Assembly (NCBI GenBank): GCA_963706795.1
Contig: OY970170.1
Location: 510,001-542,000, forward strand
Direction: 5' to 3'
Length of the DNA stretch: 32,000 nucleotides
Source: Candidatus Saccharimonadota bacterium
GTDB lineage: Bacteria; Patescibacteriota; Gracilibacteria; BD1-5; UBA2023
The notes beneath the pieces are model-generated. The model did no database searches. It was not told the DNA's origin and saw only the letters and a program-made list of their open reading frames with translations. The translations under genes and the position numbers were made by a program. Positions 4,230-28,608 of the stretch are shown piece after piece; within the stretch, counting starts at the first letter, position 1; the number at the start of each line of letters is the position of its first letter.

Positions 4230-6761
4230 CTATTTTCGAGCTACCATCTTATATAATTCGAGCATATCTCCAACTTCGAGCTTGAGATCTCATTTAAATG
4301 TAATACCGCAGTCTTCTCCTGCCTCGATTTCATGGACATCGAGCGGACCAGTCTTGAGATTGGCAACTTCACCAGATCCGACTTTTTCGTTATTGCGAAT
4401 GACGCGGATTTTAGCGCGGTTTTCGATCTTTCCACTCGTCACTCCGAGACCGACGATAAACTTGTCCTTTCCTGAGTAGAAGATTGCCTTAACCACTGCG
4501 TGTCCGAGATCCATGTCATCAAATCGGAGGTCGACCATACCCGTAATGATGTTTTCGACTTTTTCAAGTACGTGGTAGATAACCTTTTTATCGATGAATT
4601 CGATCTTGGAATTGGCGAGTGTCTGGCGAGCGTGGATATTTACTCCGACGTTGTAGGCAATCAGAAGCGCCTGAGACGTTCCGGCCATAAGAACATCTGA
4701 GTCATTGATTTCTCCGACTCCCGAGTGAATAAATGTTACCTGTGTTTCTGAAGTCGAGAGCTTGACGAGCGCGCTCTTGAGAGCCTCGAGTGAACCATTG
4801 GAGTCACACTTAATAACGATCTTGAGCTGCTTGAGCGCACCTGATTTGATACGCGTCAGGAGCATATTGAGCGAAGCACCTTCGAAATTGTGGATACTCT
4901 TCTGTCCCTTCGCAAGCTCAAATTCATGAGCCTTTGTTTGAGAAGTGACCGCATCAGGCATTACCTGGAGAATATCTCCACCTTCTACGACTTTTGAGAG
5001 TCCCATTACCTGTACTGGTACTGATGGACCTGCTTCGTCGATATTTTTACCGCGGTAGTCCTTGAGGCCTCGTACACGTCCATAAGCACTTGCACATACA
5101 ACGTAGTCACCCTTTTTGAGGGTACCTGCATTAATGAGGATGGTTGCAAGTGAACCGAGCTTTTGATCGAGGTGTGACTCAATAACCGTACCTACTGCGG
5201 GGCGAGTTGGGTGAGCCTTGAGATCCATGATATCCGTCGAGAGGATGATCATATCAAGAAGTGTTTCGATACCGAGACCTGTGTGTGCCGAAACCGGAAC
5301 CATAACGGTATCTCCTCCCCAATCTTCTGGTTGAAGTCCATGTTCAGCCATCTGACCGCGGATGAGATCGAGATTCGCACCTGGCTTATCCATCTTGTTG
5401 ACAGCAATCACCATTGGTACATTTGCAGCCTTTGCATGATTGATAGACTCGATTGTCTGAGGCTTCATTCCTTCGTCTGCAGCGATAACGATGACCGCGA
5501 GATCCGTGAGCTTTGCACCACGCGAACGCATAATCGAAAAGGCCTCATGTCCTGGAGTATCGAGGAAGGTAATTTTCTTCCCATTTCGCTCTACCTGGTA
5601 TGCACCGATCTTTTGCGTGATTCCTCCGGCTTCACCTGAAGCGACCGAAGTCTTACGGATGTAGTCGAGGATGGAAGTCTTTCCGTGGTCGACGTGTCCC
5701 ATGATCGAGATGATCGGAGCACGAGTCTCCATCTTTTCTGGATCGTCATTTTTGAGGAGTTCTGCAGTATTTCCCTGCATAATATCCGATACCGAAGCCT
5801 CTGTAGAATGTTCTCGAGTAACTTTTACCTGAAATACTTCTCCGATAAGAAAACACGTATCAAAGTCGATCTTGGTATTGAGATTCGTCATCATTCCGTT
5901 CTTCATGAGCTCTCCGATGATCTTCGGGAGTGGAACTCCGATCTTTTCTGAGAATTCTTTTACTGCGAGCATCTCTGGGATCGCTATCTCCTGACCCGTC
6001 TTGTCGGTAAGGATCTGTTTAATATCTGAGTCAGATTTATCACGACGATCTCCGCCAGTAAATTTTTTACCGCGTCGGAATTTACCATCGTCTTCTGGAG
6101 CAGACTGAGTGCGAAGACCCTTCTTTCCAGCTTTGAATCCTTCACCAGCACCGCCAGTACCTGTTTTTTTACCAACGGGGAGTGAATTACGTCCGCGCTT
6201 TGGAGCATTTTGATGACTCTTTGCGTACTGCGCAAGACGATTAGCATTGGGTCCAGCTCATGCAGCAGGTGTTTGTGTGCCAGAAGCAGGAGGCTTTGTA
6301 TCTGGTCGTTTTGTAGTATCAAATTTTGGCGCTGCCTCAAAAGTGATGCGAGGTGCACGATTTTTTACCTTAAATCCACGATCTTGAAGAAGCGGGTTAG
6401 TGAAGGTTTTTGGTGCAGCGGGCTTTGGAGCCTCAGGACGATTTCCTTCAGGACGGCGCTGTTCTGTGCGAACTGGCGGGCGTGGAGCCTGTGGTGGGCG
6501 AGCAACAACCTTTGGAGCCGCTTCAAACGAAATAATCGGACGGAATGAATCCGTCTTTTTTGGAGTTTCGGGAACGGGAGCTGGAACAGAAGCTGCTGGC
6601 GCAGGGGTTTCTGGACGTGATGCTTCTGGTGCTTCTACTGGATCATTAGGCTTTTTTGCCTTGATCTTGAGCTTGAGACCAGATTTTTTCTCACCCTCTC
6701 ATTCAGAAGAGGCCTTTGGTACACTCGAATAGTAATCGTCGAAATTCGTCGTTTGGGTCAT
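4230..6761 (-). CDS. infB: Translation initiation factor IF-2 (843 aa)
   Basis: Track fragment 4290..5972 holds the GTPase motifs ([20 protein letters not shown]). It reads through TGA 4290-4292 to TAG 4230-4232 ([25 protein letters not shown]). It reads upstream through TGA 6258-6260 and 6699-6701 to ATG 6759-6761. The N-terminal region is Pro/Ala/Lys-rich, as usual for IF-2. Confidence 0.9.
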
Positions 6762-15876: not shown

Positions 15877-15953
15877 TGGTGGGTAATATAGGATTCGAAC
15901 CTATGACCCTCTGCTTGTAAGGCAGATGCTCTAACCAACTGAGCTAATTACCC
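15877..15953 (-). tRNA. tRNA-Val(UAC), CCA encoded
   Basis: Hand-folded cloverleaf GGGTAAT/ATTACCC. Anticodon arm TCTGC-CTTACAA-GCAGA. T-arm CATAGGTTCGAATCCTATA. Confidence 0.9.
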
Positions 15954-15992
15954 ATAAATTTAGAGTGCGTTTCCGATAAATCGAGCAAAAAA

Positions 15993-16069
15993 TGGTGGGT
16001 CATACTAGGCTCGAACTAGTGACCTCTTGCATGTCGAGCAAGCGCTCTAACCAACTGAGCTAATGACCC
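15993..16069 (-). tRNA. tRNA-Val(GAC), CCA encoded, with C instead of U at position 33
   Basis: Acceptor GGGTCAT/ATGACCC. Anticodon arm CTTGC-TCGACAT-GCAAG. The loop reads U-C-GAC-A-U. Confidence 0.8.
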
Positions 16070-16090
16070 GAAACAATTTGGAATCTGAAA

Positions 16091-16167
16091 TGGTGCCCGA
16101 GGCGGGACTCGAACCCACGACCTTCAGCTTAGAAGGCTGCTGCTCTATCCAGCTGAGCTACTCGGGC
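16091..16167 (-). tRNA. tRNA-Arg(UCU), CCA encoded
   Basis: Acceptor GCCCGAG/CTCGGGC. Anticodon loop CTTCTAA. T-arm GTGGGTTCGAGTCCCGC. Confidence 0.9.
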
Positions 16168-16181
16168 GTATTCTCCTCAAT

Positions 16182-16295
16182 CTTGGCGTTTACCGACTCT
16201 CCCACCGTTAAGACGGCAGTACCATAGGCACGACAAAGCTTAACTTCTGTGTTCGGGATGGGAACAGGTGTACCCTTTGCGTATTAAACACCAAG
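16182..16295 (-). rRNA. rrf: 5S rRNA
   Basis: Reverse complement reads CTTGGTGTTTAATACGC...CCCATCCCGAACACAGAAGTTAAGC...GGGAGAGTCGGTAAACGCCAAG. Helix I is formed by the two ends. Confidence 0.85.
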
Positions 16296-16474
16296 ATCGA
16301 AGAGAAAATGACTCCGAGGAATGGATCTCGTACGAGAGATAGATGATGAGAGAAGCAGGAGTGTGTGAGTCAGTCTTGCGACTGACTCTGTGCTCTTTTC
16401 CTGAAAATTGTGGAGAGAACTATGCGCTCTGACATGCGATTAACGAAAGTATCATTTGATACGCCATCAACTTG

Positions 16475-19521
<3,047 letters not shown>

Positions 19522-19951
19522 TTATATTCTGGCTTATGATTCTCTTTGATGGTTTGTTGAGTTTTGTAACAAAACGATACTTTGTTTGGAATTCATGTTT
19601 AATGGAATGGAGCTTTCTGACGTTTGTTTGAGTTGGACTTGCGTCCTTCTCAGTCTTTGGTCTTGTGCTTTGTGTCCGTTATGTGAATTGCAATTGTTTT
19701 TCGCATGTTTAGTTTTGTATATATGCCCTTTTGTGAAGCATATATACGCGTTTATTTTACTTAGTTACTCTTCACGACATTCTTCGTGTTTCTCTCATCG
19801 TCTATTTCTCGTACGTAGATGTTAAGGGGCATTGAGGCCTTACCTCACACACCAGAAGACGAAGTTGATTCCTTGAGAGAAAAAGAGACAGAGTCTGATT
19901 GTAGATCTTGATGCAGAGCATGGTTGATCGGATCAGTGTCAGATACAGATT

Positions 19952-21427
<1,476 letters not shown>

Positions 21428-22587: not shown

Positions 22588-22643
22588 GAATGTCGAATTA
22601 TGGTGGGCCCACCTGGGATTGAACCAGGGACCAATCGGTTATG

Positions 22644-23327
22644 CATCCCACTTCGACTTTCGTCGCCTCTTTCGAGTTCGTGGTCTGGACTATCCCTTCA
22701 CCCACATGGGGTGTCTGCCGTCTAGTCTCTACACCTGCCTTCGCTGAAGCTTCGGCAGGCAAGCCTGCTATGAATCCTACTTTAGTAGAAGCCCCCCACA
22801 GTAGATTGCCTGCAATCCGTAGACTTGGCGAAGGATTGGCTCGGGATTACCACGTAATATTACAGAGGCTTCCCCGAATTTGACAGATATTCACCAGTAA
22901 ATTGCTCTACTGGTAGCCCTTGACGCTGAATCATATTCAATATTATGCAGTTATGATTGATAACATAACTTGCTCCATATGCTCATGCGAGCTTTCTGGA
23001 AAGCAGAAAAAATTTTGTTCTATAGCCTGTAAAAACAAGGCGCATCAGAGTTATTTTCAACAAAAGGAACGTTGACTAGAAAGAAAGATTCTTCTTATCA
23101 AGAGATTCTGAAGTTGTTGTCATACCTGTGGCTACAAGAAAAATCTCGCAGCTCTGGCATTCCATCATAGAGACGGAAAAGAAAAAGATTTTAAGCTTGA
23201 TATGCGCTCACTTTCCAATCGCACTTTAGACGCTGTGGAGTGAGAGCTCCGAAAGTGTATTTTGCTGTGCCATAATTGCCACGCAGAGACACACCATCCA
23301 GAATTGAACTTAGATTCAACGTTTTTA
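22644..23327 (-). mobile_element. Group I intron (IC3-like, tRNA-intron type), 684 nt, in the anticodon loop
   Basis: Minus-strand core motifs match the Azoarcus/Anabaena tRNA introns as I recall them. GTCAAATTCGGGGAAGCC is at 22867-22884. GGTAATCCCGAGCCAATCC is at 22833-22851. GGTGTAGAGACTAGACGG is at 22718-22735. GGGATAGTCC is at 22687-22696. The intron ends ...GGGATG (terminal G at 22644). Confidence 0.8.
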
Positions 23328-23342
23328 AGCCGACTGCTCTAA
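22953..23342 (+). CDS. HNH homing-endonuclease-like protein (129 aa), encoded antisense to the intron
   Basis: ATG 22953 and TAA 23340-23342. Three in-frame TGA at 23073, 23109 and 23241. Motifs: CSICSC...FCSIACKNKA, RF-G-SCCHTCGY, LAFHHRDGKEKDF, LLCHNCHAETHH. The last 15 nt overlap tRNA exon 1 on the other strand. Confidence 0.8.
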
Positions 23343-23378
23343 CCACTGAGCTATAGGCCCGTTAAAAACGGCAGGACG

Positions 23379-23496: not shown

Positions 23497-23997
23497 ATGA
23501 GCGAAGTGATCCTTCTATCGGTGAGACAGCATGGCATCAAGCTCTTTTTGCGACTTCCTCGATGGATTGTTTTTGGAACAATTGCCGGAGTTCTCGTCGG
23601 AGTTTCGACTGCTTCTTGGACACTTGGAGCTGTAACTGGAATAGCAACCCTTACTGTCGGCGTAGCTCTGGAGTGGAATCGCTTCAAGCGCTCAACGCTC
23701 GACATTACCAATACCCGCGTCTATCTACAGGTATCAAAGGGGCTCCTGAGTGGATTTGAAGCAGGACTGCATTACAAGCAGATTAAAAATTGTACCTTTC
23801 GTAAACAGCACTTACTACATACGCTCACAAATTCTGGCACGCTCTATCTCCGAGCTGGTGCGGATGAAAAGGAGCAGATCATCGCTGAATACGTACCAAA
23901 CGTCGAAAAAATCTCCAAAGCCATTAACTGGATGCTTGCACTCAGTGAAGATGCTCGCATGCATCTCGAGTCTATTCCGACACATGGAGCAAAATAA
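23497..23997 (+). CDS. Membrane protein with bacterial PH (bPH_2/YdbS-like) domain (166 aa)
   Basis: Intact ORF with two N-terminal TM helices. These are followed by the pattern STLDITNTRVYLQVSKGLLSGFEAGLHYKQIKNCTFRKQHLLHTLTNSGTLYL, typical of bPH_2. Confidence 0.6.
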   Translation: MSEVILLSVRQHGIKLFLRLPRWIVFGTIAGVLVGVSTASWTLGAVTGIATLTVGVALEWNRFKRSTLDITNTRVYLQVSKGLLSGFEAGLHYKQIKNCTFRKQHLLHTLTNSGTLYLRAGADEKEQIIAEYVPNVEKISKAINWMLALSEDARMHLESIPTHGAK

Positions 23998-24023
23998 AAT
24001 CTCCCCGAATTCGGGGAGATTTT
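23997..24023. terminator. Bidirectional intrinsic terminator
   Basis: Perfect palindrome aaatctccccg-aatt-cggggagattt between convergent genes. Confidence 0.65.
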
Positions 24024-24648
24024 AGATACTTTCTTTATAGCATGCATCAATCGCACGCGAAAGATCAAGAAGCGCCTTTAATTGGTTTCGTGTAGCAAAA
24101 ACAACAGATTCAGAATCGCGTTTCATGTAATTCACGGAAGCATCAGAAACAATGAGGAGTCTTGCTTCTTGTAAATACTGAGGATTGTATGGTGTATTAT
24201 TTAATCTCTTTTCATGAAAGTGACTATCGAGTAAACAAGGCTGATAGAGATGTGCACCTATTCCACCATCAGCAGCTCTATTGCTCAAAGTTAGCGTATT
24301 ATCAGTAGAGCCATGTTCATGTCTGATCAAAACGGATTCAGGCATTCTATCTAAAATTTTCTTAACGCTGAGATTTGTCTCCTCATATTGTTCAGTCGCT
24401 ATGGACGCCAGTAACTGAAGAACCTTCCCAGATCATTTATAGTGCGAGAGGAATCAACCCCCTCCTGCTCAACGTATTATAATTTCTGGAAAACCGCCAT
24501 TTTCTACCATGCTTATTCGTTCTTTTTCTTCCTCTCATGCACGCTTTAAAGAATCAGATCACCAGACAAAATAGTCCATTACCACATGAGTAATACTGAA
24601 TGCGGCGGGGTGTTTAGAGTCAGTAGTTTGTTCTCCTAAAAGTTTCAT
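24022..24648 (-). CDS. Hypothetical protein with Gly-rich loop (208 aa), possibly a Rossmann-like LOG/SLOG-type fold
   Basis: Track fragment 24022..24345 extends upstream through five TGA (24433, 24454, 24469, 24535, 24559) to ATG 24646-24648. It contains EIIIR-G-AGGG-G-FLSHYK-G-SG and later NRAADGGIGAHLYQP. The fold assignment rests only on remembered LOG motifs (GGGxxG, PGGxGT). Confidence 0.55.
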
Positions 24649-24765
24649 CTGATCGCGTAAATTGAGTGTACTGTATATACGAGTTATCTATTGTCAATTA
24701 TCCAAATAGCGGCTCTGTACACAAAAAAAGACCTCTTTCAAGGCCTTCTGATTCTTTGATTTTCA

Positions 24766-24885
24766 TGGCGGTGGATGAGGGATTCTTCCTTCGTTTCACT
24801 GCGGACGCCTCGGGCCAGAGTCCAAATCGTTGGACTCTTAAAACGCATTCGCGTTTTACCCTCAGTTCGAATCCCGTCACCAACC
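24766..24885 (-). ncRNA. Candidate structured RNA element, copy 1 (tRNA-Ser 3'-end-terminated core)
   Basis: The minus strand starts GGTTGGTGACGGGATTCGAAC and ends GAATCCCTCATCCACCGCCA. The two ends pair for about 16 bp with three 1-nt bulges. Internal hairpins are AAAACGC-GAAT-GCGTTTT and GAGTCCAA-CGAT-TTGGACTC. Confidence 0.4.
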
Positions 24886-24930
24886 ACAAAAAAAGACCTC
24901 TTTCAAGGCCTTCTGATTCTTTGATTTTCA

Positions 24931-25050
24931 TGGCGGTGGATGAGGGATTCTTCCTTCGTTTCACTGCGGACGCCTCGGGCCAGAGTCCAAATCGTTGGAC
25001 TCTTAAAACGCATTCGCGTTTTACCCTCAGTTCGAATCCCGTCACCAACC
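24931..25050 (-). ncRNA. Candidate structured RNA element, copy 2
   Basis: 100% identical to copy 1. Confidence 0.4.
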
Positions 25051-25097
25051 ACAAAAAAAGACCTCTTTCAAGGCCTTCTGATTCTTTGATTTTTTCA

Positions 25098-25217
25098 TGG
25101 CGGTGGATGAGGGATTCTTCCTTCGTTTCACTGCGGACGCCTCGGGCCAGAGTCCAAATCGTTGGACTCTTAAAACGCATTCGCGTTTTACCCTCAGTTC
25201 GAATCCCGTCACCAACC
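25098..25217 (-). ncRNA. Candidate structured RNA element, copy 3
   Basis: 100% identical to copy 1. Confidence 0.4.
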
Positions 25218-25264
25218 ACAAAAAAAGACCTCTTTCAAGGCCTTCTGATTCTTTGATTTTTTCA

Positions 25265-25357
25265 TGGCGGTGGATGAGGGATTCGAACCCTCGCGGCACC
25301 TTGCAGCGCCCTACAGGTTTAGCAAACCCGCCTCTTCAGCCACTTGAGTAACCCACC
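25265..25357 (-). tRNA. tRNA-Ser(GCU), CCA encoded
   Basis: Acceptor GGTGGGT/ATCCACC with discriminator G. Anticodon arm CGGGT-TTGCTAA-ACCTG. Long variable arm. T-arm GAGGG-TTCGAAT-CCCTC. Confidence 0.9.
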
Positions 25358-25471: not shown

Positions 25472-26620
25472 CTATTCGAACTTCAATCGAATATCGAGGA
25501 GTTCTGGTACATTTCCTGTACGAACGGGTGGGCCCCATGTACCCCAACCAGAAGAAACATAAAATTCAGTATTCCCGATCTTGCGCCCTCCCCAGCTAAT
25601 TTCAAAAATCTGGCTCGTAATAACGCTAAATGGCCAAAGTTGACCGTGGTGCGTATGCCCCGAAAGCTGAAGCGATACACGTCCATCATCCGCAGCTTCA
25701 CGGATAGCTCCTGGCTGATGGTCCATCAAAATCACAGGAAGCCCTGGATCCGTATCCGCAAGAAGCTTCTCAAGGCTCTTGCGTTTTTTGCCTGTAAACA
25801 TAGGAAGACTTGCATCTTCACGACCGACGAGCGTAAATACGCCGCCAAGCACGATGGATTCATCGCGAAGCATAGTAACTCCGTGCGCAATGAGATATGC
25901 ATCGGCGCGTTCTACTCCTCAAATATGTTCATGATTTCCATTCACTGCAAAAACACCAAGTGGAGCATGGAGCTTGCGAATAGAAGTACCAATATCTTGC
26001 TTGATAACTGGCTCGATATCTTCGTCAATTGTGTCGCCTACTAAAAATATCGCATCCGGCTTCAGCGCATTAACATCGCGAACAAATCGTCCAAATCGCT
26101 TCTTGCCAATCATCGTTCCGAGATGAATATCTGTTGCCGCAACAATGTGGAATTCTCCACCCTTACCATTGCCCTTAGGAAAAACGTATTCGAGTTTGCG
26201 GATCGCGGGATGTCTCGCATTGCGCCATCCATGAGCAGAGAATGCAAAAGCTCCTACAAAAACTGCAACTACCTGGGCCAAACGAAAATACGAACTCATT
26301 CCAAAATGCGGTACAAATTCTCGTACGAGTGAGGTAATCGCCGTAATTCCAAAAATACCAAGAACAAGATACGTCAGCATCGCGAGCCAAAATGACCCCA
26401 CCCAAAGTAAAAATGAAACGAAGTGATTTTTAAAAAAACGCTCAACAATACGGGCCACCAAAAACATCGGGGCAATCGTCAAAAAGCCTATCAAATACAG
26501 ACACTGCAAAACTGGAAAAATCCCCAGAGCGCTCCATCCATAAAAAAATACAAAGGCGTTTGCACCACCGTAAACCGCTACGACAAAGAAGATAAATATA
26601 AGAATTCGATGTTTTGGCAT
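25472..26620 (-). CDS. Membrane-anchored metallophosphoesterase (YkuE-like, calcineurin-type)
   Basis: Track fragments 25472..25873 and 25919..26779 share a frame and join across TGA 25919-25921 (NGNHEHI-G-GVE). Motifs are ATDIHLG, GDTID, GNHE and GHTHHG. There are N-terminal TM helices. I prefer ATG 26618-26620, because the track's TTG 26779 abuts a terminator. Confidence 0.8.
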
Positions 26621-26776
26621 GAAATGCACATACAGATATAGGACGTTTTGAACATGGAGGGAGAAATCTAGAGCAGTCCAGAGAGCATGTCCAAAGTTTT
26701 GAAGGAGTGTAGTCGGAAGAAATAAAAACGCAAAGTAAGCACGTTTGTATTTTCGAACCTCCGCAATAGCCAATAG

Positions 26777-26804
26777 CAAAATAAAGACCTCTTTCGAGGT
26801 CTTT
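26777..26804 (-). terminator. Intrinsic terminator following element B
   Basis: Minus strand reads AAAGACCTC-GAAA-GAGGTCTTT followed by ATTTTG. Confidence 0.55.
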
Positions 26805-26823
26805 ATTTGTTTCGATTTACTTA

Positions 26824-26947
26824 ATGACGGAGAGACAGGGATTCTTCCGTCGTTTCACTTCGGACGCGCTCGGCCGAAAGCCAAATCGTTGGCTTTCTAT
26901 TGCTTCGCAATACCTCACGTTCGAATCCCGCCAAAATCTTCGTGCAC
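26824..26947 (-). ncRNA. Candidate structured RNA element B, a diverged homologue of the 24.7-25.2 kb cores, 3' of tRNA-Ser(UGA)
   Basis: The minus strand contains ...GGCGGGATTCGAACGTGAGG, then TATTGC-GAA-GCAATA, then AAAGCCAA-CGAT-TTGGCTTT, then GGCCGAGCGCGTCCGAAGTGAAACGACGGAA. It ends GAATCCCTGTCTCTCCGTCA, which copies the tRNA-Ser(UGA) 3' end with one change (GTCA for GCCA). The 5' boundary is uncertain. Confidence 0.4.
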
Positions 26948-26948
26948 G

Positions 26949-26968
26949 AAAAAACCCCTTTCGGGGCC
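26949..26968 (-). terminator. Intrinsic terminator directly after tRNA-Ser(UGA)
   Basis: Minus strand reads GGCCCC-GAAA-GGGGTT followed by TTTTC. The architecture and spacer (AAAAATATCAAAGCAGAAGG) match those after tRNA-Ser(GCU). Confidence 0.55.
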
Positions 26969-26989
26969 CTTCTGCTTTGATATTTTTAA

Positions 26990-27077
26990 TGGCGGAGAGA
27001 CAGGGATTCGAACCCTGGGTACCTCGCGGCACGACAGTTTTCAAGACTGTTGCAATCAACCACTCTGCCATCTCTCC
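26990..27077 (-). tRNA. tRNA-Ser(UGA), CCA encoded
   Basis: Acceptor GGAGAGA/TCTCTCC with discriminator G. Anticodon arm ACAGT-CTTGAAA-ACTGT. Long variable arm. T-arm CAGGG-TTCGAAT-CCCTG. Confidence 0.9.
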
Positions 27078-27092
27078 GTTCGAAGCCCGCAC

Positions 27093-27171: not shown

Positions 27172-28608
27172 ATGAAAAAAACTTTTTTATTCTTCGCTCT
27201 CGTTGTTGTTTGTTGCTCGCTTAATGCGTGCTCAAAAGACAGTAGCACCACGAGCACAGATACCGGATCTCAAAACCCCGATAGCACCTGATCAAACGAA
27301 CCAGGCAAAGAAATGTCTCTCGAGGATCGCATGGATATAGCCAGAAAGCGTGTGGCATTACGCTCCATTATTCGAAAGGGCGACTATTATAAAGCCCGAA
27401 ATGACGCAGAGACCGCCATTCGATACTACAAAAACGCACACGAGCGAATCGATGGCGATGCCAATATTGCTCTCAAACTCGCTGACGCGTATTACGAGCT
27501 CAAGCAATATTCGGATGCTTACGATCTCTATAAGACACTTCCCGTGCAAGAGCTCGACGAAAAGACCAAACTCCGGTTTATTGGTTCGATCATGCTCGAT
27601 ACCGAGCGCAAGGATAAAACCGCCGAGATAGCTAAATATCCTTTTGGTTCAGGAACCAAAGAATATTATGCCCTTGTTGACACCTGTGTGCTTGATGTCT
27701 CAAAATGTAGCGATCAGATTACTAATTCTCCTTCCAAAGACCCTCGTGTCCTTTGACTCGTTGATACGCTTAAAAGCTACAATCAACTGAGTACCGACAC
27801 TACCTATCGCGATGCGCTCGTAGCCGGCAAATTCTACGAGCAGCAATCCTATCTTGCCTCCTACGTAATCGCCAAAAGCGTTATTGATCGACGACCCGAC
27901 TACCGGATCGTTCTCAAAATCGGTGGCTATAGTGAATACGCACTTGGTAATTTTAAAGAAGCATCTTCTCTCCTTGTGAGATACTACACGCTCGAGCCCA
28001 AAGACATCGAGACTGCCTATATGCTCGGTATCGTAAATTATCTCAAAGAAGACTACTCAACGTCCAATCTCTATTTTAATGCTGCTGTTCTCAATGGCTA
28101 CAGTCCAAAAACTGAGCTCGAGCGTCGTCTGATTTATAATTACACCCTCCTTGGGGACGAGCGTGGCGCATTCAAGATTTTTCGATACCTTCTTGAGGAA
28201 CCAGATGCTACGAGTGAAGACTTTGAAATCGCTATATTTATGGCTGTCGAAGGTGGCGAACCTTCCAAGGCTTCTATCTGGAGTCAAAAGGGCATAGCTC
28301 GCTTCCCTGATGATGATCGTCTCCTTGCATTTGCGGGTGGACTCAAACGCGAAATCTGAGAATTCGATGCTGCAGAAGAACTTCTTCGCAAAGCACTCTC
28401 CATAGACGGACGTAACCCTATAGCCTCGCTCGAACTTGGTCGTTTGTATATTGCAAAAAAGGACTATACTCTCGCTCAAGGTTACCTCCAAGACGCTATC
28501 TCTGCAGATCCCGCCGGATTTTTTGCCGAAGAAGCCCAAAAAGAACTCAAAAATATCCCAGCCACTGCGACTGGATCAATCACTGAAACAGGTACTATTT
28601 CACCATAA
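27172..28608 (+). CDS. TPR-repeat lipoprotein (478 aa)
   Basis: ATG 27172. Signal peptide with lipobox: MKKTFLFFALVVVCCSLNAC. In-frame TGA at 27289, 27754 and 28357 join track fragments 27313.. and 27976... TAA at 28606-28608. TPR-like repeats are present (AETAIRYYKNA..., ALKLADAYYELKQYSDAYDLY...). Confidence 0.75.

Follow-up and report, generated by a model that had tools for sequence, protein, structure and literature searches.

Candidate miniature integrative modules of about 165 nt at the ends of two serine tRNA genes in a Gracilibacteria-type bacterium

The single unit following tRNA-Ser(UGA) (unit B) and the tandem array following tRNA-Ser(GCU) (A) were compared in the window, i.e. the whole 32-kb stretch of DNA that was analysed. 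Both are best explained as a family of about 165-nt non-coding modules inserting at the T loop/3' end of tRNA-Ser genes, and the two serine tRNA genes hit are found in one narrow Gracilibacteria group. Among the explanations weighed for B and A together, a miniature, non-autonomous integrative module at tRNA-Ser ends was ranked first, with a probability of roughly 0.4. The module enters at G57 of tRNA-Ser and supplies a replacement 3' end, a trailer and a terminator, so that the tRNA gene remains intact and the original 20-nt end and the native trailer are moved downstream. Repeated gain or amplification resulted in tandem copies, of which 3.4 are found at the GCU gene, and in a decayed partial copy at the UGA gene in relatives. 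The route by which B arrived is reasonably clear, namely insertion with duplication of a 20-nt tRNA end, which took place at two tRNA-Ser genes and was followed by amplification at one of them.

Host and layout of the units

Several ORFs across the window are uninterrupted only if UGA is a sense codon; in-frame TGA codons occur, among others, in the lipoprotein ORF 27172-28608 (starting at 27172) and in the phosphoesterase gene (25472-26620). The latter is located between both tRNA-Ser genes (26620..25472) and its nearest named homologue is from Candidatus Gracilibacteria. Since UGA is read as sense and the phosphoesterase has its nearest homologue there, the host is a Gracilibacteria-type bacterium using genetic code 25, and under this Gracilibacteria/SR1-type code ORF lists based on table 11 break genes into pieces. 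The source genome has a size of 1.27 Mb and is a reduced Gracilibacteria genome. With code 25, the window encodes rpoA, IF-2, a peroxiredoxin, an ABC ATPase, MnmA, methyltransferases, a PspC-domain protein, a NUDIX protein, a nucleotidase, Era, the phosphoesterase and a few ORFs without match. An rRNA operon (16S, 23S, 5S) followed by tRNA-Arg(UCU), tRNA-Val(GAC) and tRNA-Val(UAC) occupies 15877-21427 on the minus strand; ARAGORN, Rfam and a covariance-model search of the window revealed no module after any of these three tRNA genes.

Both tRNA-Ser genes were placed on the minus strand by ARAGORN and Rfam, tRNA-Ser(UGA) at 26990-27077 and tRNA-Ser(GCU) at 25265-25357. The former is intact (Rfam tRNA, 59.7 bits) and has the same sequence as the tRNA of L014, a Patescibacteria MAG with the accession JBMOJK01 that is described below. 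Its 5' leader GCGGGCTTCGAAC (27078..27090, minus strand; also in L014 at about 5174-5186) directly adjoins the first base of the tRNA and has one mismatch to the box at the 5' edge of every core. With 10/11 pairs, the leader is also nearly complementary to the T loop and stem of its own tRNA, and tRNA-Ser(UGA) itself is laid out as box, body, 3' end and trailer.

The order of parts in B, all on the minus strand, is spacer, GAAA-loop terminator, linker, box CGGGATTCGAAC, two hairpins, a 31-nt block, tRNA-end copy, and trailer with terminator. The last 20 nt of tRNA-Ser(UGA), G57-A76 (27009-26990), are the proximal copy of the duplicated segment. The trailer of B (26949..26989) consists of the spacer TTAAAAATATCAAAGCAGAAGG (26989-26968) and the terminator GGGCCCCGAAAGGGGTTTTTT, a GAAA-loop hairpin plus T6 (26969-26949). 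The following 19-nt linker CGTGCACGAAGATTTTGGC (26930..26948) is like the 5' leader of tRNA-Ser(GCU) in L014. The box GGGATTCGAAC ('T2', 26919..26929) is invariant in A, L014-A and B, and is one mismatch away from the inverted T arm (T loop and 3' T stem) of the tRNA. Hairpin 1, TATTGC/GCAATA, is located at 26912-26898 and hairpin 2, GAAAGCCAA-CGAT-TTGGCTTTC, at 26897-26876. The conserved 3' block GGCCGAGCGCGTCCGAAGTGAAACGACGGAA (26845..26875, 31 nt) differs from that of A by two substitutions and by GGCCGAGC instead of GGCCCGAG, and by nothing else. The distal, attR-like repeat of G57-A76 is the tRNA-end copy GAATCCCTGTCTCTCCGTCA (26825..26844), which is identical to the end of tRNA-Ser(UGA) at 19/20 positions (CCA changed to TCA), compared to only 14/20 for the GCU type. 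Then follow the native trailer and the second GAAA-loop terminator of tRNA-Ser(UGA) (26778..26824), which includes a terminator-like site at 26779-26808, and the distal stretch upstream of the phosphoesterase gene (26705..26777), with a degenerate box GGAGGTTCGAAAAT at 26762-26749. B measures 165 nt when counted between the first bases of the tRNA's own 20-mer and of the 20-mer copy.

The A array (24720..25284, minus strand) contains 3.4 copies of the module with 99% identity according to TRF; unit lengths are 167, 167 and 165 nt, and the four tRNA-end copies are found at 25284, 25117, 24950 and 24785. The 21-mer AGTGAAACGANGGAAGAATCC occurs four times in the window, with none expected. The final tRNA-end copy of the array is followed by a trailer identical to the unit-internal trailer. 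The last partial copies end variously, after GTG in the window, GGGATT in L014 and GTGAG in L029, another relative. After removal of the shared tRNA end, A and B aligned with a score of 29.5, compared to -10.0 ± 4.1 for shuffled sequences (z = 9.7; 0/2000), and 72 of 83 aligned core positions are identical. B is best explained as a separate, older-diverged member of the module family. Unit length is kept to 165-168 nt although individual segments differ by +7, -5 and -4 nt, which fits a length- or phase-constrained intermediate.

An earlier reading of this DNA, made from the sequence alone, had described spacer, GAAA-loop terminator, core and second GAAA-loop terminator after tRNA-Ser(UGA), a core related to those of the array, and a 3' end copied from tRNA-Ser(UGA) rather than GCU, beginning at G57 with CCA altered. 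All of these features were located as described, except that the core of ~120 nt is present as about 95 nt of core plus the 19-nt linker.

No σ70-like promoter was detected within any unit. Both tRNA-Ser promoters are plain (TTGACA/TTGACT, 16 nt, TAnnnT). A terminator-like hairpin with T run is located immediately upstream of each core, and a terminator follows every tRNA-end copy. Rfam, both at the gathering threshold and at E ≤ 10, has no family covering any core as a whole; the sole matches reaching into unit sequence were two sub-threshold ones, sX4 with 21.5 bits (versus 70) across tRNA-Ser(UGA) and CRISPR-DR46 with 19.9 bits (versus 50) at the second terminator. Several identities of the core were considered and rejected. 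A diverged tRNA-Ser body or pseudogene was discarded, since ARAGORN found none and the core compared to tRNA-Ser bodies gave z = 0.7-1.25 only. Coding potential was rejected because A and B are separated by frame-shifting indels and the ORFs lie in different frames; a spurious 173-aa ORF across the array is contained in a large protein collection and has no relatives there. Motifs of hammerhead and other small ribozymes are not kept in L014 and have no Rfam match. The missing unit promoter, the terminators after the tRNA-end copies, the missing Rfam family and a core unlike a tRNA body all speak for the integrative module.

Relatives, empty sites and polarity of the insertion

Syntenic loci of relatives were gathered via the phosphoesterase between the two tRNA-Ser genes. 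An exact-pattern scan of GTDB representative genomes gave L014 as the sole true homologue (phosphoesterase 73% protein identity); the other 21 matches are chance hits or belong to an unrelated acidobacterial/alphaproteobacterial repeat. In MAGs of Acidobacteria/Terriglobia (L003-L011, L015, L017-L019) this is a multi-copy, MITE-like inverted-repeat element, GTCATTCTGAGGAGCCGAAGGCGGTCCTGAGTGAAACGAAGGAAGAATCCC ... GGGATTCTTCGC ... CTCAGAATGAC. It has an exact 20-21-mer in common with the conserved block of the module and also shares the hairpin foot GAAGAATCCC/GGGATTC; the common 20-21-mer was taken as coincidence. Scans of JGI metagenomes revealed no copies, IMG/VR gave chance matches only (the best, L047, with 20.7 bits, comprises only the common stretch AGTGAAACGAAG), and a BLAST search of GenBank phages found no copies. 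A covariance model built from A, L014-A and B and run against the window and 28 loci detected no additional copies, its weak matches being tRNA-Ser genes only. Nothing comparable was found in the literature.

Four further relatives (L023, L024, L025 and L028; phosphoesterase 55-68% protein identity) retain all or part of the gene order tRNA-Ser(UGA), phosphoesterase, tRNA-Ser(GCU), tRNA-Met. None of the tRNA-Ser genes contained in these four loci has a unit; a short trailer and a terminator are all that follows. In L014, tRNA-Ser(GCU) is followed by one A unit and a partial copy, and tRNA-Ser(UGA) by no intact B. The empty sites, together with the presence of A and the lack of an intact B in L014, argue for an integrative module. 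A near-identical strain, L031 (sample ERR12037365), carries B as well; two variable-arm changes (GCAAGG to GTAAAG) separate its tRNA-Ser(GCU) (1542-1634) from that of the window (25265-25357), of which one is located in the loop and the other turns a U.G into a U-A pair.

The two trailers of the UGA locus give the polarity of the event. The trailer 3' of B's 20-mer copy is the orthologue of the native UGA trailer of L014 (69/85 identical), whereas the trailer adjoining the intact tRNA is more similar to the A trailer (56/66, score 64) than to the L014 UGA trailer (54/66, score 47). With the native trailer distal and an A-like trailer proximal, the 20-mer is the original tRNA end, displaced by an insertion which brought a replacement end, as expected for an integrative module; the change from CCA to TCA in this 20-mer fits a disused copy. 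Two arguments of the sequence-only reading do not hold up against these data. It had argued against insertion, which is contradicted by the empty sites in relatives, by L014 lacking an intact B and by the distal position of the native trailer; and it had taken the tRNA-matched end as evidence for co-evolution, but according to trailer polarity the tail is a duplicated target and not a co-evolving part of an RNA.

A direct repeat of ~20 nt reaching from the T loop to CCA, with the tRNA restored, is reportedly the hallmark of integrase-mediated insertion into tRNA genes. At the UGA locus, the tRNA is intact and its 20-mer 27009-26990 recurs at 26844-26825; the same applies to A with its four copies. 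This flanking repeat and the restored tRNA are the signature of integration into a tRNA gene and thus support the integrative module. In L029 and L014, the region from the native UGA terminator to the phosphoesterase start contains a decayed, truncated copy of the 5' part of the unit (L029 versus B, z = 9.6; L029 versus A, z = 6.0; L014 versus B, z = 4.6), so the UGA locus was hit more than once. In the window's own distal flank (26705..26777), similarity to the unit is not significant. The G57 boundary at two different tRNA-Ser genes, combined with the older decayed copies in L014 and L029, points to repeated targeting. In L029, the contig start lies exactly 30 nt ahead of the divergence point of B and the flank. 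This hints at a k=31 assembly branch and thereby at a B-type copy in that genome, whose junction would read GTGAG|GTATTGC. Homology between the L014 linker and the native flank of L023 is not significant (p = 0.47).

Another mobile element is present in the neighbourhood, a group I intron in tRNA-Met, which likewise fits the integrative module. The tRNA-Met(CAU) gene (22601-23360, minus strand) is split in the anticodon loop by an intervening sequence of ~680 nt (5' half 23360-23328, 3' half 22643-22601), and according to Rfam a complete group I intron occupies 22954-22664. ORF 22920-23342, which has the opposite orientation, shows an HNH-like motif by eye (HHRDG...N...CHNCH) without Pfam match. 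In L014, L023 and L025, tRNA-Met is uninterrupted and follows tRNA-Ser(GCU) within 10-340 nt. In the window, two ORFs without Pfam match, 24648-24022 (minus) and 23497-23997 (plus), are located between the A array and tRNA-Met (region 23497-24648). This looks like an insertion or rearrangement, which also shortened the last partial A copy (after TTTTTTTGTG).

Fold and constraint of the core

The main rival to the integrative module, although on balance unlikely, is a small structured RNA gene retained by the host, for which insertion accounts for the arrival alone. Transcription would run in tRNA sense through the terminator, and the transcript would mature in the same way as a tRNA trailer. 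The helix GGGAUUC/GAAUCCC would close the RNA, leaving a 13-nt single-stranded tail with the same sequence as the acceptor 3' strand plus CCA of the adjoining tRNA-Ser.

Structural statements are based on three independent full copies (window A, L014-A and B), and with three sequences covariation statistics are weak, which counts against the host RNA. Between A and B, seven stem pairs were changed on both sides (three in hairpin 1, four in hairpin 2) and none on one side only; thus, the compensatory rewriting of both stems proposed from the sequence alone was confirmed. Paired cells amount to 98.8%, compared to 31-54% when the partner is shifted by ±1 to 3 columns. In total, 7-9 pairs are compensated and no hairpin pair is broken, in favour of a host RNA; the hairpin pairs are all Watson-Crick and suit either strand. 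RNAalifold predicted a compact fold, in which a closing helix is formed by the box GGGAUUC with GAAUCCC, the first 7 nt of the tRNA-end copy, followed by an inner helix, the two hairpins and a small third hairpin. The predicted inner helix contains U.G pairs feasible on the tRNA-sense strand only, and pair 18-73 covaries between the three sequences (U.G, C-G, G-C); both observations support an RNA. The compensated hairpins and the strand-limited U.G pairs point to a folded single strand rather than to a duplex protein-binding site, and in this respect argue against the integrative module.

Compared to shuffled sequences, the folds of A (z = -4.7) and L014-A (z = -3.4) are more stable, as a host RNA would require, but B is no better than shuffles (z = -1.3) and the plus strand folds about equally well (z = -5.0 and -2.3). 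An extended, acceptor-like pairing of leader and tail is confined to window-A and is absent in L014-A and B, which weakens the host RNA further; a tRNA-like minihelix as identity of the core was rejected on the same observation.

Between the window and L014, the A core is identical at 85/90 positions (94%), in contrast to 44/58 (76%) for the A terminator plus linker (Fisher's exact test, p = 0.002), and four-fold degenerate sites of the phosphoesterase are 37% identical, which corresponds to saturation. Both tRNA-Ser genes are identical between window and L014. Of the five differences in the A core, three affect hairpin loops and the remaining two are located just 3' of the box. One of these two keeps its predicted pair (U.G to C-G), and none of the five disrupts a predicted helix. 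So either purifying selection acts on the A core or the core was exchanged recently, and its constraint exceeds that of the terminator in the same repeat. An identity of 94% despite saturated silent sites suggests selection on the folded core; it is easier to obtain by a host function and thus counts against the integrative module. The claim of a selected structure co-evolving with its tRNA-Ser can accordingly be retained in its first half, given the paired changes and the 85/90 identity, and only the tRNA-matched end drops out as evidence for co-evolution. That stems are kept in complete copies while partial distal copies decay, and that the few A-core differences spare the helices, also favours a host RNA.

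On the other hand, a host RNA has to cope with the missing promoter and with an intrinsic terminator immediately preceding each core, with the loss of CCA from the B tail, and with a distribution which indicates that the unit is dispensable (no intact B in L014, unit missing from more distant relatives). Small RNAs from tRNA 3' external spacers, such as 3'ETS-leuZ of E. coli, are likewise non-coding, of the same sense and directly downstream of a tRNA, but they are located upstream of the terminator within the tRNA transcript, whereas the module core is separated from the tRNA by a terminator. If the core was a host RNA, it would represent a new tRNA-linked RNA class of candidate-phyla bacteria.

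Mechanism, further explanations and known elements

For the integrative module, the following course of events would be conceivable. The module would essentially consist of an attachment site and a folded core; its mobilisation in trans would rely on a recombinase gene at another site of the genome, with strand exchange within the 20-nt tRNA segment. Tandem accretion, or unequal crossing-over with the 70-90-nt repeats as partners, may have enlarged the array. In cis, the reaction would depend on the conserved, covarying core, which comprises the box/tRNA-end helix, the two hairpins and the 31-nt block and may work as a folded single-stranded nucleic acid, as in integron attC sites. The excised junction would be the tRNA directly joined to its native trailer, ...CCGCCATTAAGTAAATCG, and precise loss of B would join ...CTCTCCGCCA to TTAAGTAAATCG.

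Several observations weigh against the integrative module. Neither an integrase, a transposase, another recombinase nor a reverse transcriptase was found in the 32-kb window (code-25 ORFs, Pfam) or in the examined parts of L014; the code-25 ORFs of the window belong to housekeeping families or have no Pfam match. No full-length parent or other copy was detected in GTDB representatives, JGI metagenomes, IMG/VR or GenBank phages. A double-stranded circle of 165 bp would be a very small recombination intermediate. Finally, as the trailer is repeated at the end of the A array and the partial copy of L014 reaches GGGATT, the repeat has 70-90 nt, which exceeds the usual length of an att core, and spread and amplification could be due to homologous recombination alone.

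According to a second, improbable rival, the units are inert by-products of tandem duplication or ectopic recombination between the tRNA-Ser loci 1.6 kb apart. Shared T arms and similar trailers would have been used, and unequal crossing-over would later have homogenised the copies, without function or dedicated mobility. All trailers, whether of the two tRNA-Ser genes or of the units, are related, and the box resembles the inverted T arm and the UGA leader and the B linker the GCU leader, as in a patchwork of tRNA-Ser flanks; RecA-type amplification is possible via the 70-90-nt repeats, and the window revealed no recombinase. Yet neutral DNA would neither remain 94% identical when silent sites are saturated nor keep two hairpins through seven paired changes. 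Neither the tRNA genes nor their flanks provide a source for the 31-nt block and the hairpins, and the divergence of A and B (72/83) well predates the split of window and L014, yet L014 has no intact B.

It is highly improbable that the module is a self-propagating folded nucleic acid, which has no fixed attachment site and acquires its tail anew from the tRNA each time. For instance, tRNA-Ser would prime reverse transcription of a small, possibly circular RNA, followed by recombination of the tRNA-linked cDNA into the tRNA gene; as an alternative, scaffold and tail would guide an RNA-directed recombinase. If true, this would be a bacterial tRNA-primed or tRNA-guided mini-element without coding capacity.

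The least probable of the ranked explanations is an RNA-mediated origin. Here, a small RNA with a complementary site for the tRNA-Ser 3' end would have served as template, possibly circular or concatemeric, for reverse transcription starting at the tRNA 3'-OH, and the resulting tRNA-linked cDNA would have entered the tRNA gene by recombination. The Mauriceville retroplasmid of Neurospora integrates through tRNA-primed hybrid cDNA and DRT2 systems make rolling-circle cDNA, both precedents for such an origin. If the 20-nt tail was copied from the tRNA acting as primer, its locus-specific match would be accounted for. As in a retroviral primer-binding site, the duplicated segment reaches from the T loop exactly to the mature CCA end; multi-round tRNA-primed cDNA would be expected to give the observed succession of tRNA, trailer, core, tRNA end, trailer and so on; and the last partial copies stop at different points (GTG, GGGATT, GTGAG). 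Against this stand the lack of a reverse transcriptase in the window, tRNA genes which encode CCA here, so that CCA in the copies proves nothing, a template which would be the strand antisense to the terminators, for which no promoter was seen, and the short last copy of the window, which is more simply explained by the later rearrangement that placed two genes before tRNA-Met.

Returning to the integrative module, the closest known systems are P4-type tyrosine-integrase islands and prophages, and CIMEs (Streptococcus thermophilus ICESt1 family). Like the module, they insert in the T loop/3' part of tRNA genes, restore the tRNA, are bordered by direct repeats comprising ~20 nt of the tRNA 3' end, form tandem copies at one tRNA gene and have empty sites in relatives; CIMEs, in addition, are derivatives without integrase gene. 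The module differs by its size of only 165 nt, by having no genes, by a compensated folded core inside, by the A-array repeats of 70-90 nt and by having no known cognate integrase or full-length parent. Integron cassettes and their attC sites are also small, promoter-less head-to-tail units in which structure is conserved over sequence and the fold may count on one strand only, but the module is without RYYYAAC/GTTRRRY core sites, integron integrase and attI, and its target is the end of a tRNA gene. MITEs and palindrome-associated elements are likewise miniature, non-coding, structured and amplifiable. The module, in contrast, has a terminal inverted repeat of 7 nt only (GGGATTC/GAATCCC), which itself is tRNA T-arm sequence, and a 20-nt duplication (2-10 bp in MITEs), and is strictly found at two tRNA-Ser genes instead of in many dispersed copies; a MITE was excluded on these three features. 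Guide RNAs of the TnpB/Cas12 type share a structured scaffold followed by a locus-specific segment of ~20 nt matching nearby DNA. For the module, no tnpB or cas gene and no Rfam family was found, its 'guide' is explained by target duplication, and such a guide would target an essential tRNA gene. IS91-type elements (GTTC target), integron attC, casposons and IS200/IS605 were rejected because their published defining site motifs or the sizes of their target duplications do not fit.

If the integrative reading is true, the module would be the smallest tRNA-gene-targeting integrative element we know of, with nothing left but a terminator, a folded core of ~95 nt and the tRNA-end segment used for attachment. 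It would mean that integrase-type elements, like transposons, can be reduced to gene-less, still amplifying parasites, which are able to retarget between tRNA isoacceptors. The conserved core would define what is required in cis, which makes recombination via a duplex versus a folded single strand directly testable.
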